Assembly: GCA_949902595.1 (NCBI GenBank)
Contig: CATLDC010000007.1
Location: forward strand, 29,496 to 93,495
Length of the DNA: 64,000 nt
Origin: an uncultured Candidatus Melainabacteria bacterium
GTDB taxonomy: Bacteria > Cyanobacteriota > Vampirovibrionia > Gastranaerophilales > Gastranaerophilaceae
Reading direction: 5' to 3'
Shown: piece by piece, positions 25,444-41,383 of the stretch
Numbering within the stretch: position 1 is the first letter of the stretch
How the letters are laid out: every line of letters starts with the position of its first letter
The notes under the pieces: generated by a model
The model's database searches: none
The model's input: only the letters and a program-made list of their open reading frames with translations
What the model was told of the DNA's origin: nothing
Made by a program: the position numbers and the translations under genes

Positions 25444-25458
25444 TTTTTGTCGTCCTTT

Positions 25459-25570
25459 TTTTACATCATGCGGAGTAGTTCCACTGTCCAGCCCCCGAAC
25501 CTGATTCACCCCTTTTACACCAGGCGGAGTAGATGGACGGTCGGGCCTACAAACCTGATTTACCCCTTTT
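25459..25570 (-). repeat. Interspersed repeat locus 1: two tandem 54-bp A units
   Basis: Minus strand GGGGTAAATCAGGTTTGTAGGCCCGACCGTCCATCTACTCCGCCTGGTGTAAAA then GGGGTGAATCAGGTTCGGGGGCTGGACAGTGGAACTACTCCGCATGATGTAAAA. Confidence 0.9.
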
Positions 25571-25657
25571 GTAAATTTCACTTTGATGGTGACCTGTAAA
25601 TTTTATCCAAGTTAGTATGTTGATATTTTGTCACCCGACCATTTCTCTACGTACGTC

Positions 25658-25717
25658 TTACACTTCACTTTCAAACTTGTAGTCTTACCTACTAATTGGA
25701 AAGTCGGTTGTAAAACC
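25658..25717 (-). repeat. Interspersed repeat locus 2: B hairpin module
   Basis: Minus strand GGTTTTACAACCGACTTTCCAATTAGTAGGTAAGACTACAAGTTTGAAAGTGAAGTGTAA. Confidence 0.85.
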
Positions 25718-25765
25718 CTTATTAATTCCTTATTAATTCGTTTCAATTGCCCCCTTAAATTGTTT

Positions 25766-27316
25766 TCAGGAATAATCCATCCAGCTCGACCTTGCTCCTC
25801 GTAAATCGCCTGTAAACCGCCTTAGATTCAATCCTTGGCTAGAAAGTATATTATTACTGCTTTTTGCGGTGTATACCTCCGGTTTTTGAAAATCTTTTTT
25901 CCCAGAAGAGATATGATTAGCAAGCGCAAGTGCCATACATCGGTCAGCGTGGGCGTCCGAGGTGCCGTCGTCGTCAAATCTTATGTTTCCGGCTTTAGTT
26001 ACGAATTTTTTGACAGAATGATAGTCGTCAATATCAACCTGCGGAGTATCAATATCAATAATGATGTTTCTGTCTTCCACAGCGGAATAGAGCTGATAAA
26101 GTATTTCGCTTTTGCTTGCATTTGTGAACTCAAAAGTTTCAACCTTGCTCAACCCGAAATCAATCTGCGCATCCTCGCCGAGCTGCGCACCAATACCGGT
26201 TGAGTCAACGCAAGCGCGACGGAGGTTCGGGAGTTCTAAGAACTTGTAAAGTATTGCTTTCTGGTCGCGGAACCGCATTTTTTTGAGCTCAATCTTGTGA
26301 CGTAAGAACTTGATATTGTTGACTTTTTCCAGAATAGAAAGTACTGATAAGTGTTTTTTGCGCGCAATATCGTAGCCAAGATACAAGTCCTTGCAACCTT
26401 TAAGCGATTCAAAATCCATAAGAATATTAGGCTCTTTTATTGCATTAAGCATTTCATAAGTAAGAAAAGCGCTAGCCTCATCCACAGCTTCGCAGCAGTA
26501 TTCCTGCCTCCATGTGTAGTCGTCTGCGCAGTCATTGCGTTCGTTTCCCAGCCATTCTTCCCGTTCTTCTTTCGTGGTCGGACGTCCATAAATCTTGTCA
26601 ACAAGCCCCTCTTCAACCGCAAGATGAATTGGCGTAATATGGTGTCCCCAATTAAGTTTACCGTCCCTGCAACGCTTTACAAACTGATAATACAAACAGC
26701 TCTGCCCGTTGTGGGTAGATAAAATACGCAGCGGATAACCCCACGTAATACAAGGTTTTGCAGCTTTCCAAAGCGCGTTCTGGTCTGAATGAAACGCAAA
26801 TTCATCCAATACAACCTTACCGCCTTTTGAACGGAACTGGGTTGGATTGGATGACAAAGCGTTGATTCTGGCGCCGTTTTTGAACTCCAGAGAAAGCGCT
26901 TTGATATCCTTTTTCTCATCAATAACGACCTCTCCGAGGTTCTTGACAGCAGCGTTGAACATCTTTGCCCATTTTTCGCAATACTGGATGTATTCCTTTG
27001 CTGCTGTGATATCAGCAGATGAGAACCACACATCAACAGGCTGGTTGCGGACTTTTAATGTTAATGCATCACGTACATCCTCATAGGACTGGATGTAGGT
27101 TGCACCGATACGGCGGGATTTTTCCCAGATTTTGATACGGGAGTCGTCTTCCAGCCACCGGCACTGATAGGGAAGGAAAAAAGCGGGTGTTTTTTCAACA
27201 GGCGGAGTAGTTCCACTGTCCAGCCTTTTACACTTCACTTCCAAGCCTGTAGTTTTACCTACCGATTGGGAAGTCGGTTGTAAAACTTCATTTACCCCTT
27301 GTTGGACTGCTTCCAT
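25766..27316 (-). CDS. Terminase large subunit (Mu gp28-like)
   Basis: FLPYQCRW, EKSRRIGAT, VVLDEFAF, STHNG, LGYDIARKKH, HADRCMALALA. Confidence 0.92.
   Translation of the reverse strand: MEAVQQGVNEVLQPTSQSVGKTTGLEVKCKRLDSGTTPPVEKTPAFFLPYQCRWLEDDSRIKIWEKSRRIGATYIQSYEDVRDALTLKVRNQPVDVWFSSADITAAKEYIQYCEKWAKMFNAAVKNLGEVVIDEKKDIKALSLEFKNGARINALSSNPTQFRSKGGKVVLDEFAFHSDQNALWKAAKPCITWGYPLRILSTHNGQSCLYYQFVKRCRDGKLNWGHHITPIHLAVEEGLVDKIYGRPTTKEEREEWLGNERNDCADDYTWRQEYCCEAVDEASAFLTYEMLNAIKEPNILMDFESLKGCKDLYLGYDIARKKHLSVLSILEKVNNIKFLRHKIELKKMRFRDQKAILYKFLELPNLRRACVDSTGIGAQLGEDAQIDFGLSKVETFEFTNASKSEILYQLYSAVEDRNIIIDIDTPQVDIDDYHSVKKFVTKAGNIRFDDDGTSDAHADRCMALALANHISSGKKDFQKPEVYTAKSSNNILSSQGLNLRRFTGDLRGARSSWMDYS
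27191..27300 (-). repeat. Interspersed repeat locus 3: A unit with nested B module, in frame in TerL
   Basis: Encodes GVNEVLQPTSQSVGKTTGLEVKCKRLDSGTTPPVEK ahead of TPAFFLPYQ. Confidence 0.9.
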
Positions 27317-28045: not shown

Positions 28046-28254
28046 CAGAGGTTGTTAGTAATTTCTGTGTCGATTTTTTGCAGATAACTCATTTGGAGCG
28101 TATTTTGTTCAATCATTGTTGATAGTAGCTTGAAGGTTTGGCCAATAATCTCGTTCATCTGTTTTGTTGTGGACTGATGATACAGATAAAAAATCAGAAA
28201 TGTCACTCCACTTGAACCTGCAAGTTTTAAAAATTCAATAATTCCATCCGGCAT
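28009..28254 (-). CDS. Small membrane protein, holin-like (BhlA/XhlA type)
   Basis: One N-terminal TM segment (GVTFLIFYLYH) followed by a coiled segment; GAGG RBS. Confidence 0.5.
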   Translation of the reverse strand: MPDGIIEFLKLAGSSGVTFLIFYLYHQSTTKQMNEIIGQTFKLLSTMIEQNTLQMSYLQKIDTEITNNLWCPYMRKGKENI

Positions 28255-28272
28255 AGTTTAACCTCTTTTGTC

Positions 28273-28380
28273 TTTTACAATAGGCGGAGTAGTTGAGATT
28301 GGAGCCTCCAAGCTACATTTACCCACTTTTTCAACAGACGGAGCAGTTTTGACGAAGGTGCTCCCAACGGCATTTACTCC
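28273..28380 (-). repeat. Interspersed repeat locus 4: two divergent tandem A units
   Basis: Minus strand GGAGTAAATGCCGTTGGGAGCACC...ACTGCTCCGTCTGTTGAAAA then GGGTAAATGTAGCTTGGAGGCTCCAATCTCAACTACTCCGCCTATTGTAAAA. Confidence 0.85.
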
Positions 28381-28399
28381 ATCACCTTGTTTACAATCT

Positions 28400-28422
28400 G
28401 TCGGGAAGCTACGCTTCCCGAC
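28400..28422. terminator. Perfect 10-bp GC-rich hairpin in the divergent late intergenic region
   Basis: GTCGGGAAGC-TAC-GCTTCCCGAC. Confidence 0.45.
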
Positions 28423-28578
28423 ATTCTTATATTGATTCTCTTTGCTTGCGTTTTCCAATCACAAATAGTCGGAATTGCGCAGACAACAGGTGTTTTACGC
28501 AAAAATATACTCAAAAATTAGAACCCGTCCGGGAAGCTTGTTATAGTCAGAGTGTCAAGGCGGGATGAAGCAAGCCGG

Positions 28579-28687
28579 AAGGGGTAAATCAGGCTTTACC
28601 ACCGACTTCACAACCGGTATGTAAAACTACAGGCTTGGAAGTGAAGTGTAAAAGGTTTCAAGTCTATCTACTCCACCTATTGTAAAA
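28579..28687 (+). repeat. Interspersed repeat locus 5: A unit with nested B module, ending at the protease RBS
   Basis: AAGGGGTAAATCAGGCTTTACCACCGACTTCACAACCGGTATGTAAAACTACAGGCTTGGAAGTGAAGTGTAAAAGG...CTACTCCACCTATTGTAAAA followed by GGAGG. Confidence 0.9.
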
Positions 28688-28698
28688 GGAGGCAAAAA

Positions 28699-29781
28699 AT
28701 GAAGTGGTGCGAAATATTCAGGACCGGAAAACATACAGATTCTAAAGGCAATAGCCGAGAATGGACAGAGGCTGATTTGCAGCAAATCTGTAATAATTTT
28801 GAATCTAAAAACTCTGATGTACCTATCTGTGTCGGACACCCTAAAACAAACAGCCCTGCTTACGGCTGGATTGAGAGCTTGAAATCTGTTGGCGGAAAAT
28901 TATACGCATCGTTTAAGGATGTACAGCCGGAGTTTCAGGAAGCCGTAAATAAAGGATTGTTCAAGACCCGCTCTATCAGCCTTACTAGAGATTTAGTACC
29001 GCGCCATATTGCTTTTTTAGGCGCACAAGCACCGGCTATTAAAGGGATGGAGCAGTTTTGTTTTGCAGATTGCGAGCCGGATGCTAATGACATCATAATT
29101 AATTTTTCCGAAAGCAAAAATGATAATGATAATGCTGATGAGTCTGCTTTGGCAGACCCCGCAGGGGCAGCGGGAATTTCTGCCCCCCTCGAAAGAGGAG
29201 GAGTTAGCGTTGAGAAAAGTGATGAAATAGGAAGCAGCACCAATATGGGGGGGAAATCAGGTTCGGAGGCTGGAAGTCCATCTACTCCGCATGTTGTAAA
29301 ACTTTCCGCGGCTTCGCCTATAGAAAAAGAAGGAGACGAAATGGACGCAGAATTAAAAAGACAGCTCGCTGCAAAAGATGAAGAGCTTGCAGCAGCTAAG
29401 AAAGAGCTCGAAAAGGTAAGGCAGGAAGCCTTAAAGAAAGAGTTTGAGGAGTTTTGTGACAATGCTATTGAGTCTGGTAATATTTTACCTGCGCATCGTG
29501 ACAATGTTTTAAACCTTTTGTTTGCAAATACCGACACTAATATCAATTTTGATGACGGCAGCTCAAAAAGCTCTAATGAAGTGCTTAAGGAATTTGTCAA
29601 AAGCCTTAGGCAAATGGACTTTCAAAAAATTAGTAATGAAAAAGACGCTCTTTCAGATAAAGAAATTAATTTTTCTGATGCTGAAGAAGTCAAAGAAAGT
29701 ATTCAGGCTTTGCAGAAAGAGTATGAAGACAAAGGTATAGGGCTCAATCCTGCACAGGCGCTTGAAAAATTGAAGGGTTGA
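28699..29781 (+). CDS. Capsid maturation protease/scaffold (Mu gpI-like)
   Basis: EIFRTGKH, VPICVGHP, PAYGWI, KTRSISL, RHIAFLGAQAPAIKGM. Confidence 0.88.
   Translation: MKWCEIFRTGKHTDSKGNSREWTEADLQQICNNFESKNSDVPICVGHPKTNSPAYGWIESLKSVGGKLYASFKDVQPEFQEAVNKGLFKTRSISLTRDLVPRHIAFLGAQAPAIKGMEQFCFADCEPDANDIIINFSESKNDNDNADESALADPAGAAGISAPLERGGVSVEKSDEIGSSTNMGGKSGSEAGSPSTPHVVKLSAASPIEKEGDEMDAELKRQLAAKDEELAAAKKELEKVRQEALKKEFEEFCDNAIESGNILPAHRDNVLNLLFANTDTNINFDDGSSKSSNEVLKEFVKSLRQMDFQKISNEKDALSDKEINFSDAEEVKESIQALQKEYEDKGIGLNPAQALEKLKG
29247..29301 (+). repeat. Interspersed repeat locus 6: A unit in frame in the protease linker
   Basis: GGGGGGGAAATCAGGTTCGGAGGCTGGAAGTCCATCTACTCCGCATGTTGTAAAA, encoding GGKSGSEAGSPSTPHVVK. 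Confidence 0.88.
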
Positions 29782-29816
29782 AAATGTTTAATACTAAAAA
29801 CAGAAAGGTATAAATA

Positions 29817-30197
29817 ATGATTAAAAGTTATCAAGCAGCAGCGGATATAGCCGCTTACAGATTTGTAAAGTTCACAGACGGCGGAATTGCGCCGGCTTCC
29901 GCGGGTACAGATAATATTATCGGCGTATCCGAAGAGGTTAAGAATACAGCCGGATATACGACAGACGTATATATTGCAGGTTCTTTTGCAGAAGTCGAAG
30001 CCGGTGGCGCTTTTTCTGCCGGTGATGCGTTGACCTCTGATGCAGACGGCAAGGCAGTTAAAGCAACTAATACGGACAATGTCGGTGCAATTGCAATGAT
30101 GGCCGCAAACGCCACAGGCGATATCGTGCAGGTTGTAGTTCAGTTGCAGAGAGTAATCGCAACTACAACACCGGCTAAAAATCCGGAAGAGGAGTAA
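29817..30197 (+). CDS. Capsid cement/decoration protein (DUF2190-like)
   Basis: AAADIAAYRFVK, VEAGGAFSAGDALTSDADGKAV, ANATGDIVQV. Confidence 0.8.
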   Translation: MIKSYQAAADIAAYRFVKFTDGGIAPASAGTDNIIGVSEEVKNTAGYTTDVYIAGSFAEVEAGGAFSAGDALTSDADGKAVKATNTDNVGAIAMMAANATGDIVQVVVQLQRVIATTTPAKNPEEE

Positions 30198-30271
30198 ATG
30201 AGGCTTGTAGTTGGAATACAGTAGTTGAATAGTGAATAAATTGAACTTTTCAACTATTCAACTACTCAACT
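30191..30271 (+). repeat. Interspersed repeat locus 7: degenerate A unit with a different inserted hairpin
   Basis: GGAGTAAATGAGGCTTGTAG...TAGTTGAATAG/CTATTCAACTA...CAACTACTC; supplies the stop of the cement gene. Confidence 0.6.
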
Positions 30272-30291
30272 AAATAAAGAAAGGACAAAAA

Positions 30292-31218
30292 ATGCCAAGA
30301 GAAGAACAATTTGAGTTGCAGCCGGAGTTAACCGGAGTTGCACTCGCTTATAGGAACAAAAATTTGATAGCAGACGAAATTTTCCCGACAGTTCCGGTTG
30401 ACCAGAAATCATTCCAGTACAATTTTTATAACAAAGAATCATTCCTGACCGTACCGGAAACCGAAATCGGCGAAAAAGGCTCAGCTAATGAAGCACAGCT
30501 AAAATGCAAGTTATTAACAGAAACCTGCAAAGACTATGCTTTGAAAGAGCGCATTCCAGTACAAAGACAGCAAGAAGCACAGGCAAAAGGAAAAAATATT
30601 GCAGCTGATACAATTATGCATCTCACCGACCTTATGAAATTATCAAGAGAAGTCAGAATTGCAAAAGCGCTGTCTAATAAGACTGTTTACGGCTCCAACT
30701 GCAAAGAGCTTACAGCTTCTGAAAAATTCTTAAATGATGATTACAATGCGTTTAAGGCTATAACTTCTGCAATGGATAAGGTGTTGTTCAGACCTAACGT
30801 TCTTATTACAAGCCGCGCAGGGTTTTCTGCATTAAGCCAGAATCCGTATGTAGTAAGTGCTGTAAACTCTGTTGATGTAAAAGCCGGTGTTGCTTCTGCC
30901 GAAGGTATAAAAAGAACTCTGGGGCTGGACAAGATTCTGGTCGGCGAGGGTATTGTTAATACTGCTGCAAAAGGACAAGCAGCTTCATTCAATTCTTGCT
31001 GGGGCAATGATGTAATCCTTATGCACATCAACCCGATTGCGACAACAGATTACGGTGTAACATTCGGCTACAGGGCAACTCTTGACGATTATACAGTCGG
31101 AAGCTACTTTGACCCTGATGCAGGCACAAAGGGCTGTGATGTTTACAGAATCTTTACAACATATCTTGACCTTATGACCTGCCCTGAATGCGGGTATTTG
31201 TTGAAGGGTGTTGCTTAA
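30292..31218 (+). CDS. Major capsid protein
   Basis: PELTGVALAYRNKNLIADEIFPTVPV, WGNDVILMH, TFGY; follows the protease and cement genes. Confidence 0.85.
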   Translation: MPREEQFELQPELTGVALAYRNKNLIADEIFPTVPVDQKSFQYNFYNKESFLTVPETEIGEKGSANEAQLKCKLLTETCKDYALKERIPVQRQQEAQAKGKNIAADTIMHLTDLMKLSREVRIAKALSNKTVYGSNCKELTASEKFLNDDYNAFKAITSAMDKVLFRPNVLITSRAGFSALSQNPYVVSAVNSVDVKAGVASAEGIKRTLGLDKILVGEGIVNTAAKGQAASFNSCWGNDVILMHINPIATTDYGVTFGYRATLDDYTVGSYFDPDAGTKGCDVYRIFTTYLDLMTCPECGYLLKGVA

Positions 31219-31236
31219 ACAGCATAAGCTCGTGTG

Positions 31237-31296
31237 TTTTACAACCAACTTCCCAACTGGGAGGTAAAACTACAGACCTGGAAGTGAAGTGTAAAA
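31237..31296 (+). repeat. Interspersed repeat locus 8: B module after the capsid stop
   Basis: TTTTACAACCAACTTCCCAACTGGGAGGTAAAACTACAGACCTGGAAGTGAAGTGTAAAA. Confidence 0.88.
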
Positions 31297-31409
31297 CAGC
31301 AGTCACTAAGAAAAGTTTGATTGTGTTGGATTTTCAGTGGGGGGCGTTCTTAATTCCCTTAAGTTCTAAAGCTCTAAGCCCCCCCATTTTTTTAAACAGA
31401 AAGGTAAAT

Positions 31410-31862
31410 ATGTATTGTAAGTTAGCAGATTTAGTCTCAATAATCCCGGAAAGAGAGCTTATCAATCTTACAAACGATAAGCCAGCGGATACTATTAATC
31501 AAGAAACCATAAACACCTGTATGAGTTTTGCTGATGAGCTTATAAACGCGTCATTGAGAAACAAATACAGACTTCCGCTTTCTTTTGCTCCAGATTTAGT
31601 ACGACAGCTTTCTGCTGATATTACGGCTTATAGAGTGTATTCCAGACGTCCTAAGGATGTCCCGGAACACATCAAACAGAATTACGAGTTTGCGCTCAAG
31701 ATTCTTGCAAATATCCAAAAAGGTACAACTGTGCTTGACCTGCCGTCTGAACATCCGGATGAAGAGGGTGTTCAGAGCTCTTCCAGTATGTATATAACAA
31801 ACAAACGTCCGGAAGATAGAAGATTTACAGATGAAATGTTCAGGAGCCACTATGCTGGATAA
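31410..31862 (+). CDS. Head-tail adaptor (Mu gp36/DUF1320)
   Basis: MYCKLADL, ADELINASLRNKYRLPL, IKQNYEFALKILANIQKG; AAGGT RBS. Confidence 0.85.
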   Translation: MYCKLADLVSIIPERELINLTNDKPADTINQETINTCMSFADELINASLRNKYRLPLSFAPDLVRQLSADITAYRVYSRRPKDVPEHIKQNYEFALKILANIQKGTTVLDLPSEHPDEEGVQSSSSMYITNKRPEDRRFTDEMFRSHYAG

Positions 31863-32292
31863 TATCGAAAAAGAATTAATAAAAAATATTGAAGCTATCT
31901 ACCCGAACTTTGATGTAACGAGTTTCCCTCTTGATTTTGAGAGATACGATTTTACGAGTCACGACGGATGTGCGCTTGTAAAATATCAGGGCAGTACATT
32001 CTCTGAACAGAATACAGTCTGGGAAGTTTCCCAAGATGAGACTTATGAATATAAAATTCTTCTTGGGTTGAGATATTTGCGTTCGTTCAAGGATGCAAAC
32101 CCTGTAATCAGTAATCTCAAAAAAATTCTCCAGGGACTTTTAATTGTGAATCACAAGGTAACGCTTAAGATGATTAAGTTTGAAGGGGTTGATAACGGTG
32201 ATTTGTGGTTTTCAATAACAATAAATTTGAAGTTAGTAATGCGCAGCACAGCGCAAAGTTATGAAGGGAGTGCCAATGCAATACCAGTATAA
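31852..32292 (+). CDS. Mu gp37-like neck/tail terminator protein
   Basis: Position after gp36; ALVKYQGSTFS; GGAG RBS. Confidence 0.65.
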   Translation: MLDNIEKELIKNIEAIYPNFDVTSFPLDFERYDFTSHDGCALVKYQGSTFSEQNTVWEVSQDETYEYKILLGLRYLRSFKDANPVISNLKKILQGLLIVNHKVTLKMIKFEGVDNGDLWFSITINLKLVMRSTAQSYEGSANAIPV

Positions 32293-32476
32293 AGGTCCGT
32301 TCTCTATCGAGGATGGCGAGAAGCCAGATACCTATCAACAATGGTTTAACGCAAAAATCTATGATGAAAAAGAAATTGTTGTTTCTTCAAAAAGGTTGAA
32401 AACATTGATTAATCTGGGGTATTTGAAGCCGATTGAGAATAAAAATACTATAGTGAAAGGCAGGGTGCAAAAATGA
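32276..32476 (+). CDS. Small phage protein preceding the sheath
   Basis: GGGAG RBS; ends LINLGYLKP-like, as seen in small pre-sheath proteins; overlaps the sheath start. Confidence 0.5.
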   Translation: MQYQYKGPFSIEDGEKPDTYQQWFNAKIYDEKEIVVSSKRLKTLINLGYLKPIENKNTIVKGRVQK

Positions 32477-33906
32477 CAGATTATTTACACGGTGTAGAGA
32501 CAAAACGCGAGGAGCAGCCAGCTTCCATACAGGACGCCACAACTTCTATTAACGCAATGGTTGTCTCTGTACCAACATTTTTACTTAAAGAAGAGTATCA
32601 GACTCTTAATAAACCCGTTCCAATCCGTGGTTATAGCGATATTACAAAATATGCCGGCAAAAATGTGGCAGGATTCACCGGGTATGATTCTTTGTATACA
32701 GCTATGACAGAATCAGAAGGCGCAATCATTTATATGATAAATGTCTTTGACAAAGATAAGCATAAAACATCCAAAACCATCGATACTGCTCATCTTACGG
32801 CTGGTAAATACACTATTGAAGAGCTAGGCGTTACAAATCTTGTTGTAGGAGACGGGGTTTTGGATACAGACTATACCTTTGAAGACGGTGTTATCACCGT
32901 CATCAAAGATGGCAAATTTAAAGATGCTGCGTCGGTAACAATAACCTACGATTACGCAGATATCACAAAATTGACTACAGCCGACTTTATTGGTACAATA
33001 GACGAAGATAATATAAAAACAGGGTTGCAAGCAGTATATGATATTCAGGCGCTTTATGGCGATGAAATATCTATACTTACAGTTCCGACTTATTCAGCAC
33101 TTAAGGCTGTACGCTCAGCTATGGAATCAATTGAGAGTAAGCTTAAGCTCCAGTCATATTATGACTGTCCGGTCGGAACATCTATCAATGCAGCAATTCA
33201 AGGTAGGCAGGGGGGAAATGGGACTGTTGACGCTTCAGTTGATTTGACTTCATCATCTGAAAACGGTATGTTCTGTTTTCCGTATGTTTACAGATATAAC
33301 GCAGAAACGGATAAAGACGAACTCAGACCGCCTTCTCCTGCCGTAGCAGGTATGAGGGTTCGGCTTGACAGAGAAAGAAATGTTGCAAAATCTATTGATA
33401 ACACGAAATCTCTGACAACAAACGGCACCGAGTTCCCGATAGGGTTCAGGCTTAATGACCCGACTTCTGAAAGCAATGCGCTCAATGCCAAAGGTATTTC
33501 AACTTTTATTAATTATAAGGGAAGCTACTATTTCTGGGGAGGACGCAACGCTAAATTCCCGACTGTGGATAATATTGAGACTTTTGAAAATGTTCAACGA
33601 ACTGCTTCATATATTGAACGTTCTATTCAAAATTCTTCATTCCAATGTGTGGGTGAAACTATCACTCAGGGGTTTATTGATGATGTTTTAAATATGATTG
33701 AAAGCTTCTTTAATAGACTAAAAAATCCACAGAATCAGATTATTATAGATGGGAATGTAATATATGACCCGTCACAGAATCCGGCAGAAGAACTTGCAAA
33801 GGGACATATAAGGTTTTCTTATAAATTCTGTCCTCCGCCTCCGGTTGAAAGGCTGACGTACTACTCGTTTATTGATATTCAGTTGTTGAATAGTCTCGGG
33901 GGGTAA
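32473..33906 (+). CDS. Contractile tail sheath protein
   Basis: YLHGVET, TGLQA, PPSPAVAG, LNAKGISTFI, YFWGGRN, YKFCPPPPVERLT. Confidence 0.9.
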   Translation: MTDYLHGVETKREEQPASIQDATTSINAMVVSVPTFLLKEEYQTLNKPVPIRGYSDITKYAGKNVAGFTGYDSLYTAMTESEGAIIYMINVFDKDKHKTSKTIDTAHLTAGKYTIEELGVTNLVVGDGVLDTDYTFEDGVITVIKDGKFKDAASVTITYDYADITKLTTADFIGTIDEDNIKTGLQAVYDIQALYGDEISILTVPTYSALKAVRSAMESIESKLKLQSYYDCPVGTSINAAIQGRQGGNGTVDASVDLTSSSENGMFCFPYVYRYNAETDKDELRPPSPAVAGMRVRLDRERNVAKSIDNTKSLTTNGTEFPIGFRLNDPTSESNALNAKGISTFINYKGSYYFWGGRNAKFPTVDNIETFENVQRTASYIERSIQNSSFQCVGETITQGFIDDVLNMIESFFNRLKNPQNQIIIDGNVIYDPSQNPAEELAKGHIRFSYKFCPPPPVERLTYYSFIDIQLLNSLGG

Positions 33907-34027
33907 ATCAGGTTTGGAGGCTGGATGTCCAACTACTCCGCCTGTTGTAAAAGTGGGGTAAATCAGGTTTTACAACCGACTTCCTAACTAATAGGTAAAC
34001 CTATAAATTTGGAAGTGAAATGTAAAA
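33898..34027 (+). repeat. Interspersed repeat locus 9: A unit followed by A-start plus B module; supplies the sheath stop
   Basis: GGGGGGTAAATCAGGTTTGGAGGCTGGATGTCCAACTACTCCGCCTGTTGTAAAAGTGGGGTAAATCAGGTTTTACAACCGACTTCC...TTGGAAGTGAAATGTAAAA. Confidence 0.92.
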
Positions 34028-34044
34028 AAAGAAAGGTTATAACA

Positions 34045-34560
34045 ATGACTACAGTAATTACAGATGGAACACTATACTTAGGCAGAAACTTATTCGGTAC
34101 TGTTACAAACATCAAAGCGCCGGAGATTGAGCCTAACACATTAGAAATAAAGACCCTCGGGTCTGTCGGGACTTACTCGCTCTCTATGACTTCAGTTAAG
34201 GAGCTTAAGAGTTCAGCAACTCTTACAGGGTATGATATGAAGGTTTTTAAGCAGATTGCAGACCCGACAAAAGAACTCACTATGACTATTTATGCGGAAA
34301 TCAAGGAATATGACGGCGCGGCTTTGACCTCTCAAAAATCTCTGAAGATAAAAATGCGTGGCACATGTTCAAAATTTCAACTTCTCGGGGAGATGAAGGC
34401 GCAAGAAAATATAGAATTCCCGATGGAGTTCAATAATACTGCGGTAAAGAAAACTGTTGACGGCAAAGATATCTATGAAATTGATATTCCGAACTATATC
34501 TATAAAGTCAATGGAGTAGATTTGCTCGCAAAGACCAAGAAAAATTTAGGGTTAGCATAA
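34045..34560 (+). CDS. Tail tube protein (P2 FII-like)
   Basis: Follows the sheath; C-terminal IYEIDIPNYIYKVNGVDLLAKTKKNLGL. Confidence 0.85.
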   Translation: MTTVITDGTLYLGRNLFGTVTNIKAPEIEPNTLEIKTLGSVGTYSLSMTSVKELKSSATLTGYDMKVFKQIADPTKELTMTIYAEIKEYDGAALTSQKSLKIKMRGTCSKFQLLGEMKAQENIEFPMEFNNTAVKKTVDGKDIYEIDIPNYIYKVNGVDLLAKTKKNLGLA

Positions 34561-34581
34561 GGTAATGGAAAGGAATTAAAA

Positions 34582-34992
34582 ATGGAAAATACAAACAATT
34601 TAACATCTTTTACATCAGGCGGAGACGGATTGCCATCAAGTTTAACTCCACCTTTTGCTCCGTTATTTGATACGGATAACGCAATTACAAAGCTTGACGA
34701 ATACAAAGAAGTAAGACTCGAAAAGAAATCTGATATCGTTGAATTTACACTTCCATCCGGCAAAAAAGTTGAGATGGATTTGTCTAGGTTCAAAATCAGA
34801 ACGATTATGAACGCAAGAGCCTGTGCTCAAGGCGGATTCAAGACCACTCTTTACATACTTGCAGATATCTGTAAATTTAACGGACAGACTGTTACAGTAC
34901 CGGAAATGGACGAATGGGACGGTTACGACCTTTTGGCTCTTGAAGAGGAATGGGATAAAGCTCGTAATAATATCCCAAAGCACCAAGTATAG
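34582..34992 (+). CDS. Tail assembly chaperone (short form); -1 frameshift extends it to 35123
   Basis: Between tube and tape measure; C CCA AAG slippery site at 34974-34980; -1 frame reads SIADVVFFAHFTGWSKAEIYDMSFDEY. Confidence 0.8.
   Translation: MENTNNLTSFTSGGDGLPSSLTPPFAPLFDTDNAITKLDEYKEVRLEKKSDIVEFTLPSGKKVEMDLSRFKIRTIMNARACAQGGFKTTLYILADICKFNGQTVTVPEMDEWDGYDLLALEEEWDKARNNIPKHQV
34608..34656 (-). repeat. Interspersed repeat locus 10: variant A unit, antisense and in frame in the chaperone
   Basis: Minus strand GGTGGAG...AATCCGTCTCCGCCTGATGTAAAA; shares AATCCGTCTCCGC with locus 12. Confidence 0.7.
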
Positions 34993-35112
34993 CTGATGTT
35001 GTATTCTTTGCCCATTTCACCGGCTGGAGCAAGGCAGAAATCTACGATATGAGCTTTGATGAGTATAACGCCCTCCAGGACGGAATGTTGGAAATTATAA
35101 GAGAACTCAAAG

Positions 35113-37173
35113 ATGGCAGATAATCTTACTTTAAAACTTGTATTGAAAGCCAATGACGGCATGAGCGGAGTAGTCCGCCAAGCCGTCCGTGCTTCTGATG
35201 CAGATTTTGAAAAGCTCCAACGCAGCCTGAAGGATACCGCAGCCGGGTTTGAAGATTTCGGGAAAAAAGCAGGTATTGCAGGAGGTGCACTTACTGCGGC
35301 CTCTGGACTTAATGCTAAGCTTGCCGGAGACTTTGAAGAAGGGATGAATAATGTTTCAACGCTCATTGACACAAATGTTGAGTCTCTTGGTGATATGTCA
35401 AAAGCTATTCTTAGTATTGGAAAGGATTCTCCGAAAGCAATCAGCGATTTAACAGAAGGCCTATATTCTATACGTTCAGCAGGGATTGACGCTTCTGAAC
35501 AGTTCAATGTTTTACGCGGTTCTGAAAAACTTGCAGTCGCAGGACTTGCAACGACTGCCGAGGCCGTTGACATTTCAACATCTGCAATCAACGCTTTTCG
35601 GCTCAAGGGCGAAAAATCAGCCAAAATGTACGATATGCTTTTCAAAGTCGTAAAATACGGTAAAACCAATATTTCAGAATTTGCGCAGGGTTTTGGCTCT
35701 GTTGCCGGAGTTGTGGCATCCGCTGATATCAAGCTTGATGAGTACTCTGCTGCTGTCGCTGCAATGACCACAACCGGCGTAAAAGCCAACATTGCTCATA
35801 CCCAGATGAAAGCTGTTATTGCAGGCTTGTCCCGTGCTACCGATGACCAGGTAAAAATCTTCAACAAACTCGGCGCAAAATCTTTCAAAGACCTGATTCA
35901 GAAATCTGGAGGTTTGGTCAACGCTCTAGACAAAATTAAGACAGCTGTAGGCGGAGATGAGGCTAAAATCATTTCGCTTGTAGGTTCTGTTGAGGCCTAT
36001 AACGCAGTTATGTCACTTACTGGTGCAACAAACAAAGTCTATCTTCAGACTCTTGATGATATGAGAAATGGCGCAGACTCATTGAGCGAAGCTTATCAAA
36101 AGCAGGTATCAGGATTTAATAATCAGATGAAAATTTTAGGCAACCAATTCCAGGTACTTGGAATCAAGTTTGGTACAGGTTTGCTCCCTGTCTTAAAAAG
36201 TGCAGGAAATGTACTTAAAGGTGTTCTTGCTTTTCTCGACAGAATGCCTGAAGGGCTTACAAATGTTTTATCTATTACAGTTGCTGGTACTGGTGCTGCA
36301 TTGCTTGGTTTAAGCGGGATGTCATTTGCTATATCAGGTGCAATAAACGGATTTAACAACATGCTCTGGTTAATAAGGCAAGCAGACATTTTGATGTGGG
36401 GGTTTTCAGGGAGAATAAGTGTCGGTTTAGCAGGCATGCAAGCCGGGCTCCTTAAATTAATTCCAGCTATCCAGAAAATGGGTATTGTTATGAAAGGATT
36501 TAATCTTATATGTGCTGCAAATCCTCTTGGGCTTGTTATTGCACTCATTGGAGCTGCGGCCTTTACCGTTATGAAGTTCTGGAAACCTATAACCGGATTC
36601 TTTCGCGGGTTCTTTACGGGTTTACGAGAAGGTCTGGCTCCTATCACTCCAGCTTTTAAGCAAATTGCAGCTGCTGTTAAGCCTGTATTTGATTGGGTTA
36701 AAAAGCTTCTAAGCCCTATTAATAGTGCAGGGAAAGCTAGCGAAGATTTCGGGCATAAACTAGGAAAAGCAATTGGTGATGGAATTACTTGGTGCACTAA
36801 ATTAATCGGAAAGCTATGGGAGGTTGTTACTCTTGGCGGGCGTATTAAATTTGGCAATAAGAACGATGTATCAGGTTTTGTCAATGGCTCGCATGCTCAA
36901 GGTTTGGCGCGGGTTCCGTTTGATGGGTATATTGCAGAGACACATAAGGATGAATCAATTTTAAGTGCTCCGGAGGCGCGGGAATGGCGGAATTACAAGG
37001 CTGGTGGAAACGGCTCCCAGCCGATTGTGCTTAATTACAGCCCTAAGATTGAGGGCGGTGCGGGGCTTGACGAAGCTAAAATGCTTGCGATTCTCAAATC
37101 CAATGCACAAGAATTGGTACGGATACTTGAGGGTGTCTTAAGACGAAGAGAGGCCAGGTCTTATGGCTATTAA
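35113..37173 (+). CDS. Tail tape measure protein (TP901-like core)
   Basis: FEEGMNNVSTL, ISDLTEGLYSIRSAG, VVKYGKTNISEF, ANPLGLVIA; ends GSHAQGLARVPFDGYIAETHKDE. Confidence 0.9.
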   Translation: MADNLTLKLVLKANDGMSGVVRQAVRASDADFEKLQRSLKDTAAGFEDFGKKAGIAGGALTAASGLNAKLAGDFEEGMNNVSTLIDTNVESLGDMSKAILSIGKDSPKAISDLTEGLYSIRSAGIDASEQFNVLRGSEKLAVAGLATTAEAVDISTSAINAFRLKGEKSAKMYDMLFKVVKYGKTNISEFAQGFGSVAGVVASADIKLDEYSAAVAAMTTTGVKANIAHTQMKAVIAGLSRATDDQVKIFNKLGAKSFKDLIQKSGGLVNALDKIKTAVGGDEAKIISLVGSVEAYNAVMSLTGATNKVYLQTLDDMRNGADSLSEAYQKQVSGFNNQMKILGNQFQVLGIKFGTGLLPVLKSAGNVLKGVLAFLDRMPEGLTNVLSITVAGTGAALLGLSGMSFAISGAINGFNNMLWLIRQADILMWGFSGRISVGLAGMQAGLLKLIPAIQKMGIVMKGFNLICAANPLGLVIALIGAAAFTVMKFWKPITGFFRGFFTGLREGLAPITPAFKQIAAAVKPVFDWVKKLLSPINSAGKASEDFGHKLGKAIGDGITWCTKLIGKLWEVVTLGGRIKFGNKNDVSGFVNGSHAQGLARVPFDGYIAETHKDESILSAPEAREWRNYKAGGNGSQPIVLNYSPKIEGGAGLDEAKMLAILKSNAQELVRILEGVLRRREARSYGY

Positions 37174-37933
37174 TTTACAAACAATTTTTGATAGAACCGA
37201 AAGTTTGGATTTTTTTAAAGAAGTCAATTATACTCATCAGCAGGGTATAATAGGCAAAGCTTCTCTTGCAGCAGGGGCGGAAAACCTTAAAACTTATCCG
37301 CTTACAGTTAAACTTCATCATTCTTTCTGCAACCCGCAGGAAGTTATTGATGAAATCGAGTCAAGAATTGCTGGAAAAGAGATTCTTGACTACTTTCAGG
37401 GCTCGGTTTATATCGGAAAATATGTTCTTCAGCACCTTAACGTTGAAGTTTTAGAACAGATTGACGGGCATATAACAGCCTGTATCATCAATCTTGAGCT
37501 TCTGGAATCCGGCGAAAAAGAAGAAAGCTTTGTACAGCAGGTTGCTGATACCACGGCAGAAGGGCTCGAAAGTGTTAATAACACTATCTCCGGCAGGGCA
37601 AAAACTTTTCTTGCTTCATCCAATCCTGTTGTAAATTTTGTCAAAAAACAGGCAGAGAATATCAAAAACCAGATGTTTGACGCGGCGCTTGATATTCTTG
37701 AAAACGGCGATATTGAAGCGTTGCCGGAAATTGGAAAATTGACAGTCCGTGATATTGCTCGGAGCATTGTTTCTGATATCGAGAACCAGGGAATAACAAG
37801 TGTAGTAAGTATTACAGAAAAATATACATTAGAGGTGAATGTTCCTGGCTTAAGCCCGGAAGAATCTGAGCGGTTGGTCGATGCGCTCAAAGAGATTCCG
37901 AGGAAGATAATGGATAGTGCTCTGAGGGGGTAA
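37163..37933 (+). CDS. Phage tail protein (P2 gpU-like N-terminus with extension)
   Basis: Follows the tape measure; LTVKLHHSFCNP, YIGKYVL, INLELLE. Confidence 0.65.
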   Translation: MAINLQTIFDRTESLDFFKEVNYTHQQGIIGKASLAAGAENLKTYPLTVKLHHSFCNPQEVIDEIESRIAGKEILDYFQGSVYIGKYVLQHLNVEVLEQIDGHITACIINLELLESGEKEESFVQQVADTTAEGLESVNNTISGRAKTFLASSNPVVNFVKKQAENIKNQMFDAALDILENGDIEALPEIGKLTVRDIARSIVSDIENQGITSVVSITEKYTLEVNVPGLSPEESERLVDALKEIPRKIMDSALRG

Positions 37934-38042
37934 ATAAGGCTTGTAGGTTAGACAGTGGAACGACTCCGTCTATTGTGAAAGGGGTAAATTAGGTTTGGAG
38001 GCTTCAAGTCCGACTACTCCGCCTGATGTGAAAGGGGGTAAT
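37926..38042 (+). repeat. Interspersed repeat locus 11: two tandem A units flanked by GGGGGTAA
   Basis: GGGGGTAAATAAGGCTTGTAGGTTAGACAGTGGAACGACTCCGTCTATTGTGAAA GGGGTAAATTAGGTTTGGAGGCTTCAAGTCCGACTACTCCGCCTGATGTGAAA GGGGGTAAT then ATG. Confidence 0.92.
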
Positions 38043-38258
38043 ATGGCAGGCAGTTATAAATTCTACAAAACCCAGACCGGCGACCGGTGGGACAAGATTG
38101 CTTATAAGTTCTATGGTGATGTGTTCAAGCAGCAGCCGATTATTGAAGCTAATTCAGATGTAGCAATAACACCAATATTACCTGCCGGTATTACGCTTAT
38201 GATTCCTATACTGGAAAATGGTGCAGATAAAGGAGGTTTACCTGTATGGAAGCAGTAA
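38043..38258 (+). CDS. Tail protein X (LysM-like)
   Basis: YKTQTGDRWDKIAYKFYG...IIEANS...LPAGITLMIP...LPVWKQ. Confidence 0.85.
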   Translation: MAGSYKFYKTQTGDRWDKIAYKFYGDVFKQQPIIEANSDVAITPILPAGITLMIPILENGADKGGLPVWKQ

Positions 38259-39235
38259 TCTACAAACCAAACGTATTTCTTACTTATAACGGTCATGATG
38301 TCACAGAAGATTTTAGTCCGTATCTATTGGATGTTACTTATACTGATTTCGAAAAAGACCAGTCTGATGAACTCGACATCCGGCTAAAAGACAATGATGG
38401 CAAATTCAGAGATACATGGTCTCCGCGTAAAGGGGATAAGCTTGCCTGTACTTTATTTCCACAAAACGGTGGAACTTTAGAATGCGGAGCATTTACTATT
38501 GACGAAGTTGAGTATTCTGGCGACGAATCCGGTGACATCTGCACGATGCGTGCTCTGGCTGCAACAATAAACAAATCCGTAAGAACCCGCTTCACTCGCG
38601 GATATTCCGGTAAAACCCTTGTTGATATCGCCCGCGAAATCGGTGCACGTCACGGATTTGAAGTCATTGGAAATGCGGGATTTGTATATGTCGACACCAT
38701 TACTCAAGCAGGTGAAACCGACCTTTCTTTTCTGAACAGGGTTGCTTCAATGTACGGCTATACATTCAAGATAACTGATAACAAGCTTACTTTTATGCCG
38801 GTGGAAAATCTAGAAAACTCCGATATACTATTAACTTTTAATAAATCGAATATTAAAAGCTATTCTTTTACAGATACATCAACAAAAATGTACGGAGCCT
38901 GCACAGCTTCTTATTATGACCCAAAGACAAAGAAGCTCAAGAACTATACGGCAAGAAATACGAATAGTCTTTCAAAAGACACATTAAAGCTTTCTAATAA
39001 GTATATTTCATTAGACGCTGCAAAACGTGCGGCCAATATCGGACTCAAAAACGGCTCAACAGAGGTCACAGGCGCAATAACACTGAAAGAAAGTAATAGT
39101 AATTTTATTGCTGGGGTAAATGTGGAGTTTGTTGACGATTTTGGTGTTTATAACGGCAGATATCATATCACTCAAACTACGCACATAGTGTCTTGCGGGG
39201 TGTATGAAGTATCAGGAGAAATAAAGAAATGTTAG
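38246..39235 (+). CDS. Baseplate hub / late control gpD-like protein
   Basis: DQSDELDIRL, GAFTIDEVEYSG, TQAGETDLSFLNRVA, YHITQTTH. Confidence 0.85.
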   Translation: MEAVIYKPNVFLTYNGHDVTEDFSPYLLDVTYTDFEKDQSDELDIRLKDNDGKFRDTWSPRKGDKLACTLFPQNGGTLECGAFTIDEVEYSGDESGDICTMRALAATINKSVRTRFTRGYSGKTLVDIAREIGARHGFEVIGNAGFVYVDTITQAGETDLSFLNRVASMYGYTFKITDNKLTFMPVENLENSDILLTFNKSNIKSYSFTDTSTKMYGACTASYYDPKTKKLKNYTARNTNSLSKDTLKLSNKYISLDAAKRAANIGLKNGSTEVTGAITLKESNSNFIAGVNVEFVDDFGVYNGRYHITQTTHIVSCGVYEVSGEIKKC

Positions 39236-39747
39236 TATTTGGTAATGTTATAGCTATTGATGAAGCAAAAGCCAGAGTTCGGCTTAAACTTCCGGACATG
39301 GATGATTACGAGACTCCGGGTTGGATTTTTGTTCCGCAGGCTTGCACTGTCGGGGATAAATCTTATAACCTTCCGGCAATTAATACGCTTGTCGCAGCAG
39401 TTATGGACAGTGAAATGCAGGACGGATGCCTTCTCGGAGCCCTCTATAACGACGAAGATGTCTGTATCCTGGGCGATAAAAATGTTAAGTACATCAAATT
39501 TGAGGACGGGGCTTATTTTAAATACGACAAAACAACCGGATTCTTTGAAGGCAAAGCACCTAATAAAATCTATATGGAAGCACCTGTAATTGAGCTTAAA
39601 GGTGATGTTGTAAATACCGGGAACTTTTCTTCAACAGGTCAGGTTTCTGACAACAAATCTTCAATGCAGGCTATGAGAGATGTTTATAACTCTCATACTC
39701 ATACTTGTCCGGATGGAACGACAAGCACAGCAATGGGGCAAATGTAG
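39229..39747 (+). CDS. Baseplate spike (gpV)
   Basis: ARVRLKLPD, YNLPAIN, GCLLGALYN; C-terminal iron-binding HTH residues YNSHTHT. Confidence 0.88.
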   Translation: MLVFGNVIAIDEAKARVRLKLPDMDDYETPGWIFVPQACTVGDKSYNLPAINTLVAAVMDSEMQDGCLLGALYNDEDVCILGDKNVKYIKFEDGAYFKYDKTTGFFEGKAPNKIYMEAPVIELKGDVVNTGNFSSTGQVSDNKSSMQAMRDVYNSHTHTCPDGTTSTAMGQM

Positions 39748-39800
39748 CTGGTAGGATTGACGTTAATCCGTCTCCGCTTATTGTGAAAGGGCAAATGTAG
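39735..39800 (+). repeat. Interspersed repeat locus 12: variant A unit flanked by a 12-bp direct repeat
   Basis: GGGCAAATGTAG at 39736-39747 and 39789-39800; core GTAG followed by palindrome GGATTGACGTTAATCC. Confidence 0.85.
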
Positions 39801-40175
39801 ATGAATACTGTAGATATAACAACATTAAATACAAACTACTGGCAGCACAAAGCCGGCACAATCGGCGGGATTGCGACAGACCTTGAGGATGTCGGGCAGT
39901 GCTACGAGACAATAATCGGGCTCACAAAGGGTGATGTCCCGCATCAGCCTAACTTAGGCGCCAATATCATTCAGGCAATTGGTGAAAACCCCGCAGATGC
40001 AGACAGGATTGTAAGGGCGCTTTTGTTAACAGAGCTTTTGAAGCAGGAGCCCAGAGGAAAAATTAAGAATCTGGGCACTGATTACAACGAAAAAGGACAG
40101 TTTTTTGTAAAAATTACATACAGTCTTGTGGCAGATGAGACACAGATAGCAACGAGAGAGGTTATTATAAAATGA
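39801..40175 (+). CDS. Baseplate wedge gpW/gp25-like protein
   Basis: DVGQCYETIIGLTKGDVPHQPNLG, LLKQEPR. Confidence 0.75.
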   Translation: MNTVDITTLNTNYWQHKAGTIGGIATDLEDVGQCYETIIGLTKGDVPHQPNLGANIIQAIGENPADADRIVRALLLTELLKQEPRGKIKNLGTDYNEKGQFFVKITYSLVADETQIATREVIIK

Positions 40176-41383
40176 ATACCAAGCCAAACTTTATAGAAAT
40201 AGACCCCAAGGCGGATGAAGCGCTTTTGGTTAACAAATATCTGGAACTTACCAAAAAGACCGAACTATTTCCTGCGCAGAGCGAACGGATTTTAATAAGT
40301 CTTATTGCTTATTATGCCAATCTCGTTAAGAATCAGTTCAATGACGCAGCAGCTCTTAATCTGGTAAGGTTCAGCCGGGCACCTGTTCTTGATTTTATCG
40401 GAGAACTTTTTGGATGCACCAGGCTCAACGCAGAATGCGGACAAGATATACTTCAAATTACTCTCTTTGAAGAGTTTTCAACTGACTTAACTATCGAGAA
40501 AGGCTTGGAGATACAGACTAAGGACGGTAAATATATATTTAAGACATCTGAAGATGTTATTGTACCTGCCGGTGAAACGATTGTAACAGTACCACTTAAA
40601 TGTGAAATCGCAACAGCAGCCGTAAATTCTTATGGCGTTGGCGATATCAATATTTTGATTAAGCCACTTAGTTATATCAAAAATGTTACTAATATCAAAG
40701 GTGTATATGGTGGGCTTGATGAGGAATCTGACGAATCGTATATAGAAAGAATCCTTCTTTCTCCTGAAAGCTACACCTGTGCAGGTTCTTATGGCTCGTA
40801 TATTTATCATACAAAATCTGCTCATCAGGACATTGTGGATGTCGAGGCAGAAAGCCCGCAGCTTCCGGCCAAGGTAAGCATTGATTCAGAAGAGTTGCAG
40901 GAGTTTAGCGTTGATTATAAGTCGGGAGTTGTAACATTCACACATAATGAGCAGGTGTTTGAAATCACCATTCCACCCGCAGCTTCCGTATTTGTATATC
41001 CGCTTGTTAAAGATGGAGGGGCACAGTTTGACATTGTTAAGAGTGCAATTGAATCCAAGCTAAATGACCGCAATTGTATGCCAATGACTGACTATATTAG
41101 TGTCTTAGAACCGGTTGCTATTGAAAAAGAACTCAGTATTACTGTTATTATTAGCGAAAACGCTGATAAAGAGAAAGTAAAATCACTTGTAAATATTGCT
41201 ATAAACCAGCTTTGCGCAGATTATCGAAAAACACTTAATACTTCACTTGTTCCTTTGAGGTTTATAACGCCATTAGGTAATATTGATGGTGTACACAATG
41301 TCATTATAAACAATCTAAAAGCTGAAGAGCAATGTAAGCTTAACGAGTATTTTGTACTAACTGCGAAGGTGGAGTTTGAATGA
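40172..41383 (+). CDS. Baseplate J-like protein
   Basis: LFPAQSERIL, SRAPVLDFIG, GGLDEESDESYIERI, AGSYGSYIYH. Confidence 0.88.
   Translation: MNTKPNFIEIDPKADEALLVNKYLELTKKTELFPAQSERILISLIAYYANLVKNQFNDAAALNLVRFSRAPVLDFIGELFGCTRLNAECGQDILQITLFEEFSTDLTIEKGLEIQTKDGKYIFKTSEDVIVPAGETIVTVPLKCEIATAAVNSYGVGDINILIKPLSYIKNVTNIKGVYGGLDEESDESYIERILLSPESYTCAGSYGSYIYHTKSAHQDIVDVEAESPQLPAKVSIDSEELQEFSVDYKSGVVTFTHNEQVFEITIPPAASVFVYPLVKDGGAQFDIVKSAIESKLNDRNCMPMTDYISVLEPVAIEKELSITVIISENADKEKVKSLVNIAINQLCADYRKTLNTSLVPLRFITPLGNIDGVHNVIINNLKAEEQCKLNEYFVLTAKVEFE

Follow-up and report, generated by a model that had tools for sequence, protein, structure and literature searches.

The 64,000-nucleotide stretch of DNA analyzed here (the window), from an uncultured Candidatus Melainabacteria bacterium, contains a Mu-like prophage whose late region is occupied by copies of a short repeat, which we call unit A. 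Between otherwise 97-98% identical phages, unit A is gained or lost as a precise 53/54-nt block. We consider it likely that unit A is a non-coding, non-autonomous mobile module that inserts into the late region of the Mu-like prophage and, where sister species are concerned, into operons of the host. Its consensus, GGGGTAAATnAGGyTTGgAGGc..(about 12 nt)..ACTCCGCCTGnTGTAAAAG, is 54 nt long, which equals 18 codons; the termini are conserved and asymmetric (5' GGGGTAAAT, 3' ACTCCGCCTGnTGTAAAAG), and the letters CTCC, TG and AAA are invariant across copies. Pattern counts gave 9 matches to a 19-nt core in the window against 0.05 expected, and 10 matches to GGGGTAAAT against 0.45, a 20-fold enrichment. 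When an nhmmer profile was run over the genome (2.10 Mb, 40.6% GC), 13 copies were found on the contig of the window, confined to 25.4-39.8 kb, together with two tandem copies on contig C8, a second prophage of lambdoid type (DnaB-like helicase, RusA), and one on contig C13; nothing further was significant. The size of the family is far beyond chance.

At the junction of the gpV-like and gpW-like genes (V-W), the gpV-like open reading frame (ORF; 39229-39747) ends ATG GGG CAA ATG TAG (39733-39747), a 41-nt body follows, and a second exact GGGCAAATGTAG stands at 39789-39800, 53 nt from the first copy and directly before the ATG of the gpW-like ORF at 39801. An earlier reading made from the letters alone (the sequence-only reading) had proposed that removing one flank copy, here and at a second junction, restores the repeat-free junction. 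Related phages with empty junctions were looked for and found. Relatives were collected from metagenome assemblies by homology search with the gpD-like protein, and their contigs were then compared. The sister phage is L052/L091, recovered from SRR32497467 and further samples; the V-W junction of L052 reads ...GCAATGGGGCAAATGTAGATGAATACT (short form ...ATGGGGCAAATGTAGATGAAT), identical to the reconstructed empty junction. V-W is filled in 7 window-lineage contigs from different samples and empty in all 3 sister-lineage contigs that reach the junction; L058, L059, L060 and L089 have no unit there either, their gaps measuring 6, 6, 2 and 17 nt, respectively. Because the junction is empty in five relatives, insertion in the window lineage is the parsimonious polarity.

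At the second junction (U-X), a 256-aa tail ORF (37163-37933) ends AGG GGG TAA and is followed by two units, then by AAAGGGGGTAAT and the ATG of a LysM/gpX-like ORF at 38043; the array at 37927-38034 is bracketed by (A)GGGGGTAA at 37925-37933 and 38033-38041. The number of units here is 0 in L087 and L089, 1 in L052 and 2 in the window. The single unit of the sister phage has AGGGGGTAA on each side, and the empty junction of L087, a more distant relative, reads ...CGAGGATAA T ATGGCAGGC (...GGATAATATG), a layout of stop, T and ATG that matches the reconstruction. Neither of the units specific to the window, at 37927 and 39735, exceeds 74-75% identity with any member of a set of 39 collected units, the tandem neighbor of the former (74%) included, whereas orthologous units of the window phage and L052 are 93-100% identical. 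This dissimilarity to neighbors indicates that arrays are assembled from units that arrived separately. The proposed flanking repeats are real, with exact copies located at both junctions, and repeats of 12 and 9 nt are very unlikely for random insertion. The reconstruction proved exact at V-W in L052 and correct in layout at U-X in L087. The sequence-only reading was likewise borne out in holding that the stop codon and the ribosome-binding site are preserved, since a stop codon and AAAGGG(G) are regenerated at both junctions.

The sister phage and the window align over 18,430 nt with 96.6% identity (window 28.2-47.0 kb) and over 6,506 nt with 98.2% identity (window 22.0-28.7 kb). All 10 indels of at least 20 nt over about 25 kb of alignment are gains or losses of modules (six of 54 nt, one of 53 nt, two of 39 nt and one of 131 nt), which amounts to ten module events on a backbone that has diverged by 2-3%. 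The modules include, besides unit A, a hairpin module (module B) and a 39-nt insert, both described below. At no junction is occupancy the same throughout the window, L052, L058, L059, L060, L087 and L089. The prophage has its early genes at 16-22 kb (repressor, MuA-type transposase, MuB-like ATPase, GemA, Gam), head genes on the minus strand at 22.7-27.8 kb (MuF, portal, TerL, TerS), and head and tail genes on the plus strand from 28.7 kb (protease/scaffold, sheath, tube, tape measure, gpX, gpD, gpV, gpW, baseplate J). The positions of the modules are collected in Table 1.

Table 1. Repeat modules of the prophage late region and their state in the sister phage and other relatives (SD, Shine-Dalgarno sequence)
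Feature	Window position	Strand	Relatives
Two tandem A units upstream of portal gene	25459..25566	-	Sister phage has one; window extra of 54 nt at 25560
Stand-alone B hairpin module	25654..25715	-	
108-nt composite in frame in TerL N-terminus (36 aa): A unit with B (27229-27282) nested	27191..27298	-	Window extra: 54-nt hairpin module B nested in TerL unit (27229-27282)
Two tandem A units, leader of leftward operon	28272..28380	-	Sister phage: one hybrid unit, breakpoint in CTCCG; window extra of 54 nt at 28343
Composite of L arm, B and 3' part of A, 5' leader of rightward late operon	28581..28691	+	
Unit A in frame, protease/scaffold ORF linker (18 aa), just upstream of internal SD and ATG	29249..29302	+	Missing in L058, L060, L089
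Stand-alone B hairpin module	31237..31298	+	
Unit A at sheath/tube junction	33900..33954	+	L052 copy carries nested 39-nt insert
16-nt L arm (GGGGTAAATCAGGTTT), then hairpin module B	33955..34029	+	
Antisense unit A in frame (18 aa, SFTSGGDGLPSSLTPPFA), 136-aa tail-chaperone-like ORF	34606..34659	-	Missing in L058
Window-specific unit A, 54 nt, inserted 5' of older unit; GGGGTAAAT flanks both sides	37927..37980	+	Window extra of 54 nt at 37927
Older unit A	37981..38034	+	Common to window and L052 (95% identical)
Free GGGGTAAAT motif in gpD-like coding sequence (AGVN)	39113..39121	+	L052 unit A 12 nt downstream; other inserts here in 3 more relatives
Unit A insert, 53 nt, gpV-like/gpW-like junction	39736..39788	+	Missing in sister phage and 4 further relatives; window extra of 53 nt at 39736
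Left copy of 12-nt flank GGGCAAATGTAG, includes gpV-like stop TAG	39736..39747	+	
Right copy of GGGCAAATGTAG, provides AAAGGG ribosome-binding site ahead of ATG 39801	39789..39800	+	
Unit in gpD coding sequence			Sister-phage extra (346 vs 329 aa)
Unit in small late ORF (ORF104)			Sister-phage extra (104 vs 86 aa)
Identical 39-nt insert nested after ACTC in two different units			Sister-phage extra
131-nt composite ahead of TerS			Sister-phage extra

Such differences could in principle arise if a fixed ancestral unit underwent tandem slippage or unequal crossing-over, the flanks reflecting local repeat periodicity and the relatives differing by contraction or expansion. At 28343 the breakpoint does lie in the conserved CTCCG core, with a hybrid unit in L052/L091, and the two-versus-one differences at 37927 and 25560 are formally explicable as deletions between 9-nt repeats (GGGGTAAAT / AATCAGGTT). 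However, V-W goes from 0 to 1 unit and hence offers nothing to slip from, and the low identity of tandem neighbors (about 74%) on a 97% identical backbone means that slippage did not produce the extra unit at 37927. Units are also scattered over more than 10 sites, with both strands represented, and lie in coding sequence, in another prophage and at a host locus. As the sole explanation, slippage is already refuted by the empty V-W junction in five relatives together with the low neighbor identity, and we regard it as highly improbable in general. The sequence-only reading had held that repeated insertion builds tandem arrays; the dissimilar units and the 0/1/2 series at U-X support this, but at least one array change, that at 28343, is better explained by unequal recombination. 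A related possibility is that the units were ancestrally present and were precisely deleted in the relatives through their flanking direct repeats, with no insertion at all. Direct repeats of 9-12 nt can mediate precise deletion, and 28343 is one likely case of deletion. Against this, the V-W unit is present in one lineage and missing in five, different lineages bear units at different sites, and the copies in coding sequence with flanks of 0-1 nt could not be precisely excised in this way, yet empty alleles exist; deletion alone is therefore very improbable.

The flanks themselves speak to the manner of insertion. At events with known empty alleles, the exact repeats measure 12 nt at V-W, 9 nt for the second U-X unit, 9 nt ahead of the portal gene (where 15 of 16 positions agree if a single mismatch is allowed), 5 nt at 28343, 1 nt in the ORF104 coding sequence and 0 nt in the chaperone coding sequence; module B entered TerL with 0 nt, and the 39-nt inserts have 1 and 1 nt. 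In 20,000 simulated random insertions, the probability of a flank repeat of at least 5 nt was about 0.0045. Where present, the repeat always equals the overlap of the target with the unit's own 5' end (GGGG[T/C]AAAT..), and the V-W and first U-X repeats include target-specific letters (the C in GGGCAAAT, and five Gs). In the repeat-free insertions the boundaries still fall within 0-2 nt of the canonical unit ends, and by inspection the right flank still resembles G(T/C)(T/A)AAT in 5/6 events. The proposed selectivity for GGGGTAA sites thus stands in part: there is a preference for targets resembling a Shine-Dalgarno (SD) plus stop sequence, but insertion is not restricted to GGGGTAA, as the in-frame insertions into coding sequence, one of them antisense, illustrate.

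These flanks could also be true target-site duplications, if unit A were a canonical MITE (miniature inverted-repeat transposable element), that is, a shortened form that arose by deletion from an insertion sequence and is mobilized by a DDE transposase making a staggered cut. Two junction insertions have exact direct repeats, of 12 nt and 9 nt, which would fit, the prophage encodes a MuA-type DDE transposase, and the ends show a weak similarity by eye (TAAATCAGG against the reverse complement TACAACAGG, 7/9). Against this, Mu transposition makes 5-bp duplications and requires Mu ends. The repeats of unit A vary in length (12, 9, 9, 5, 1 and 0 nt), zero included, so that there is no target-site duplication of fixed length, and in every case the repeat matches the 5' end of the unit itself. 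Pairing of CAGG with CCTG is no better than in shuffles, and a parent insertion sequence was not seen. Lacking both convincing terminal inverted repeats (its ends are 5' GGGGTAAAT, 3' CTCCGCCTGnTGTAAAAG) and a fixed duplication, unit A does not qualify as a MITE in the strict sense, and a canonical MITE is a decidedly unlikely explanation.

In addition to gene junctions, unit A occurs inside coding sequence, and wherever it does so it is open in the frame used. In-frame inserts of 18 or 36 codons are found in TerL, the protease/scaffold protein, the tail chaperone, the DnaB-like helicase and, in L052, in gpD and ORF104; the comparison with relatives, which covered all of these but the helicase, shows empty alleles. 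We infer that these copies are translated; they survive in coding sequence because they are 18 codons long and open in the frame used. In TerL the sister phage has a plain A unit (18 aa; TerL is 498 aa against 516 aa in the window), and L058 and L090 carry neither module A nor module B. The TerL N-terminus before FFLPYQ is an insertion hot-spot. At the same position, L058 (about 1000-1066) carries a different palindromic in-frame insert (TCTCCCTCTCC TCA GGGAGAGGGA). A second site of this kind lies in the gpD-like gene (window about 39129; alignment A3 columns 303-330), where P0002, P0004, P0005 and P0007 hold four different inserts of 18-24 aa and P0001, P0003 and P0012 are insert-free; judged from this alignment, the gpD site too is an insertion hot-spot. 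The antisense chaperone copy is present in both the window and L052, and L058 has a different, sense copy elsewhere in the chaperone gene. On contig C8 of G000 (47629-47737; L005 7630-7738, minus strand), two tandem A units in frame form the C-terminal 40 aa of the DnaB-like helicase and overlap the start of the RusA-like gene.

The units might instead be functional cis-elements of the late mRNAs (for translation initiation or coupling, for processing, or as protein-binding sites), maintained by selection, with their spread being secondary. Every unit terminates in AAAGG(GG), which is SD-like, and contains CTCC, which is anti-SD-like and invariant; units stand in both late-operon leaders and ahead of the internal scaffold start, and more than 20 copies are co-oriented with genes against 1 antisense. 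All of the intergenic copies seen (>20) share the orientation of the flanking genes, and the sole antisense copy sits in coding sequence; this co-orientation follows naturally if the preferred target is an oriented SD and stop motif. Against selected cis-elements, copies also occur in coding sequence, and presence varies between 97%-identical phages and among all relatives, so that there is no conserved site of the kind known for the extended start-associated sequences (ESAS) of mycobacteriophages (PMC3203893). The RNA analyses were also negative: RNAalifold gave no consensus structure for unit A, the best candidate helix (CAGG/CCTG) was 62.7% paired, the same as in shuffles, with no covariation, and single-sequence folds had z-scores of -0.5 to +0.8. 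We therefore consider selected cis-elements unlikely as the primary explanation.

Other candidate explanations were rejected. Unit A is not a hairpin, an RNAalifold structure and covariation both being absent, and an RNA hairpin or riboregulator is ruled out by these results together with the fold z-scores and a scan of Rfam 15, which gave 0 hits at gathering score in the window and only sub-threshold, chance-level matches in 25000-40200. Programmed frameshifting or read-through as a general mechanism is excluded because, counted from the gene upstream, the unit's open frame is -1 in two cases (37927 and 39735) and +1 in a third (33900), and because the tandem units at 37927 and 37981 lie, on inspection of the sequence, in different frames. 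A coding repeat under protein selection was rejected since substitutions among copies show no third-codon-position bias. The units are also not CRISPR-like repeat-spacer arrays: their middles are homologous rather than spacer-like, and full flanking repeats are missing around single units.

Of 36 species of the host genus, 17 contain the family (1-13 copies per species), as against 0/24 genomes of the other genera of the order. Some copies in sister species lie at host operon junctions (rplS-rbgA, mraY-murD); within the genus, unit A is not confined to phages. A pattern scan of genome contigs found full-length units in only three metagenome-assembled genomes (MAGs; one Gastranaerophilales and two gut MAGs), other matches being mostly due to chance, whereas blastn against the phage GenBank collection and a pattern search of IMG/VR, whose relatives are only about 30% identical, found nothing. 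Together, the genus-wide family and the copies in host operons make a donor pool in host genomes plausible. As to mobilizing genes, PF01797 (Y1/RAYT) is absent from G000 and from the unit-rich G005, G006, G023 and G025; PF00078 (reverse transcriptase) is absent from G000, and its presence across the genus is uncorrelated with that of the units. Since the Y1/RAYT, IS110 and reverse-transcriptase genes are absent and do not track the units, unit A does not depend on them. The only transposase seen in the window is the MuA-like DDE enzyme; other DDE families were not searched for.

Several points weigh against mobility of unit A. Every comparison rests on metagenome assemblies, and the polarity of the two-versus-one array differences cannot be proven. 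No donor close to the two new units was found, either in a JGI metagenome scan for the V-W unit body or among the 39 collected units, and no mobilizing enzyme was identified, Y1/RAYT, RVT_1 and IS110 genes being absent from the genome (99.8% complete). The array difference at 28343 appears best read as unequal recombination in the CTCCG core that left the hybrid unit in L052/L091, which implies that arrays can shrink too. Finally, the co-orientation of intergenic copies may leave room for an added function at the RNA level.

For unit A as a mobile module, the comparisons show that new copies prefer targets which already look like the 5' end of the unit (GGGG[T/C]AAAT, the local SD and stop motif). 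The overlap of target and unit end is left after such an insertion as a flanking direct repeat of 9-12 nt, and the upstream stop and the AAAGGG(G) ribosome-binding site are kept. Since the favored target is also present at the 5' end of every unit, later insertions adjoin earlier ones and give arrays of dissimilar units. The same block inserts without a flank repeat in coding sequence, where it would add a Gly/Ser/Thr/Pro-rich loop of 18 aa. The boundaries at canonical ends even without microhomology argue that the mobilizing step recognizes the unit ends. Rather than duplication by a staggered cut, the step itself would presumably involve pairing or recombination between a unit-end junction (..GTAAAAG/GGGGTAAAT..) and a similar target; the agent may be either a recombinase or nuclease that acts in trans, or a copy-choice switch of template, made while the phage replicates, among the numerous copies in phage and host. 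The donors would lie outside this genome, probably in a diverse pool of units in the host genus.

Unit A is accompanied by other modules. Module B is an imperfect hairpin of about 54-60 nt (TTTTACAACCGACTTCC...GGAAGTGAAGTGTAAAA, with a small apical stem) with fold z-scores of -2.0 to -5.6, found in the window at 25654-25715(-), 27229-27282(-), 28597-28650(+), 31237-31298(+) and 33971-34029(+). Its 54-nt insertion in the TerL unit of the window, missing in the sister phage, indicates that module B is itself mobile. The 39-nt insert (13 codons), CTTCGGCAGACCGTGTTGC[A/G]GAAGCAACACCCGCTGCCG, lies in L052 at 1019-1057 and 5709-5747 (window positions 29288 and 33939); one of the two falls in the protease/scaffold coding sequence, and the insert has a 7-bp stem (GTGTTGC/GCAACAC). 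It makes a third mobile module. We tentatively suggest, while leaning somewhat to the contrary, that A, the hairpin B (54 nt) and the 39-nt module, found in Gastranaerophilales-type bacteria and the Mu-like phages of these bacteria, represent a class of mobile DNA that has not been described before, made up of ultra-small, frame-neutral (18-codon) modules. Such modules would nest mutually, would be moved by an end-recognizing activity without terminal inverted repeats, hairpin (for A) or fixed duplication, and would insert at a high rate (at least 10 events per about 3% backbone divergence) in junctions and in loops of essential virion proteins, thereby generating diversity in both.

Among known systems, very small mobile repeats (SDR) were reportedly described by Elhai and co-workers in 2008 from Nostoc/Anabaena chromosomes. 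By description only, these resemble unit A in being tens of nucleotides long, non-coding, without an obvious transposase, dispersed, nested in other repeats and polymorphic between close genomes; the host lineage of unit A is probably sister to Cyanobacteria. To our knowledge, neither a frame-neutral 18-codon length nor insertion in phage virion genes has been noted for them. MITEs and repetitive extragenic palindromic (REP) sequences or REPINs are similarly short, multi-copy, non-autonomous, mostly intergenic and polymorphic between strains, but unit A has no REP hairpin and its genome no RAYT (Y1) gene; module B, though, is hairpin-like. The mycobacteriophage mobile elements (MPME) are about 440 bp long and encode a small ORF, whereas unit A is non-coding and eight times smaller. 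Like unit A they are small and distinguish near-identical phage genomes by their variable position (PMC3203893). The start-associated sequences (SAS) and ESAS of Cluster K mycobacteriophages are also phage-wide, directly upstream of starts, inclusive of the ribosome-binding site and in one orientation, but SAS is 13 bp long and ESAS is conserved at orthologous genes across the cluster, whereas the sites of unit A are polymorphic, form tandem arrays and extend into coding sequence (PMC3203893). Rickettsia palindromic elements (RPE) are small non-autonomous repeats that lie in frame in unrelated protein genes and are translated as extra peptide segments (PMC10969869). Unit A shares the small size, the lack of autonomy, the in-frame location in unrelated genes (its translation being inferred) and the intergenic copies, but RPE are about 100-150 bp long, palindromic and found in Rickettsia, whereas unit A is 54 nt long with no detectable hairpin, is carried by a phage and a host genus (probably Gastranaerophilales) and prefers SD/stop gene junctions. 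None of these analogues has the full combination of a 54-nt unstructured unit, asymmetric conserved ends, 18-codon length, SD/stop preference with variable overlap repeats, nesting of modules and insertion in essential virion genes.

The base-exact filled and empty alleles show that a phage genome can harbor mobile elements as short as these modules of 39-54 nt. They colonize gene junctions with the stop codon and ribosome-binding site intact, would provide 18-residue loops to terminase, protease/scaffold, baseplate and chaperone proteins, and explain nearly all large indels between two near-identical phages. With defined ends, a preferred target and many natural events, they offer a tractable system for analyzing how elements below transposon size move, and they suggest a source of rapid virion protein variation in a poorly known bacterial lineage. 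For annotation they are a warning, as the inserts shift start codons and protein lengths in such phages.

Further repeats were seen beside these modules. A type containing ..GTAGTTCTAC..N..CCTGTAGATAyAAtAC.. (L091 6514-6644, L058 9701-9800, L059 4026-4125) occupies gene junctions in relatives at which the window carries either no repeat or A units, and it forms part of the 131-nt composite before TerS in the sister phage. In sister species (L011, L012, L015 and L018), A units belong to a larger palindrome that covaries, AAGATCCTGAA-unit-AGTTCAGGATGA, and occupy its loop; CTGAA/TTCAG is replaced by CCGAA/TTCGG, which suggests a composite host repeat. In L008, L010 and L016, from three species, CGTGTGTGGGCG comes after a unit whose ends are conserved and whose middle diverges; since the neighboring genes differ among the three loci, unit and CGTGTGTGGGCG may belong to a larger repeat. 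A hairpin at window positions 30206-30274, in the gap between the decoration and major capsid genes, has only sub-threshold, chance-level Rfam matches to miRNA-precursor models and is probably another junction hairpin module. Outside the prophage, a 75-nt tandem repeat of 2.1 copies lies at 6382-6540 within an ORF of 1117 aa (5408-8761).

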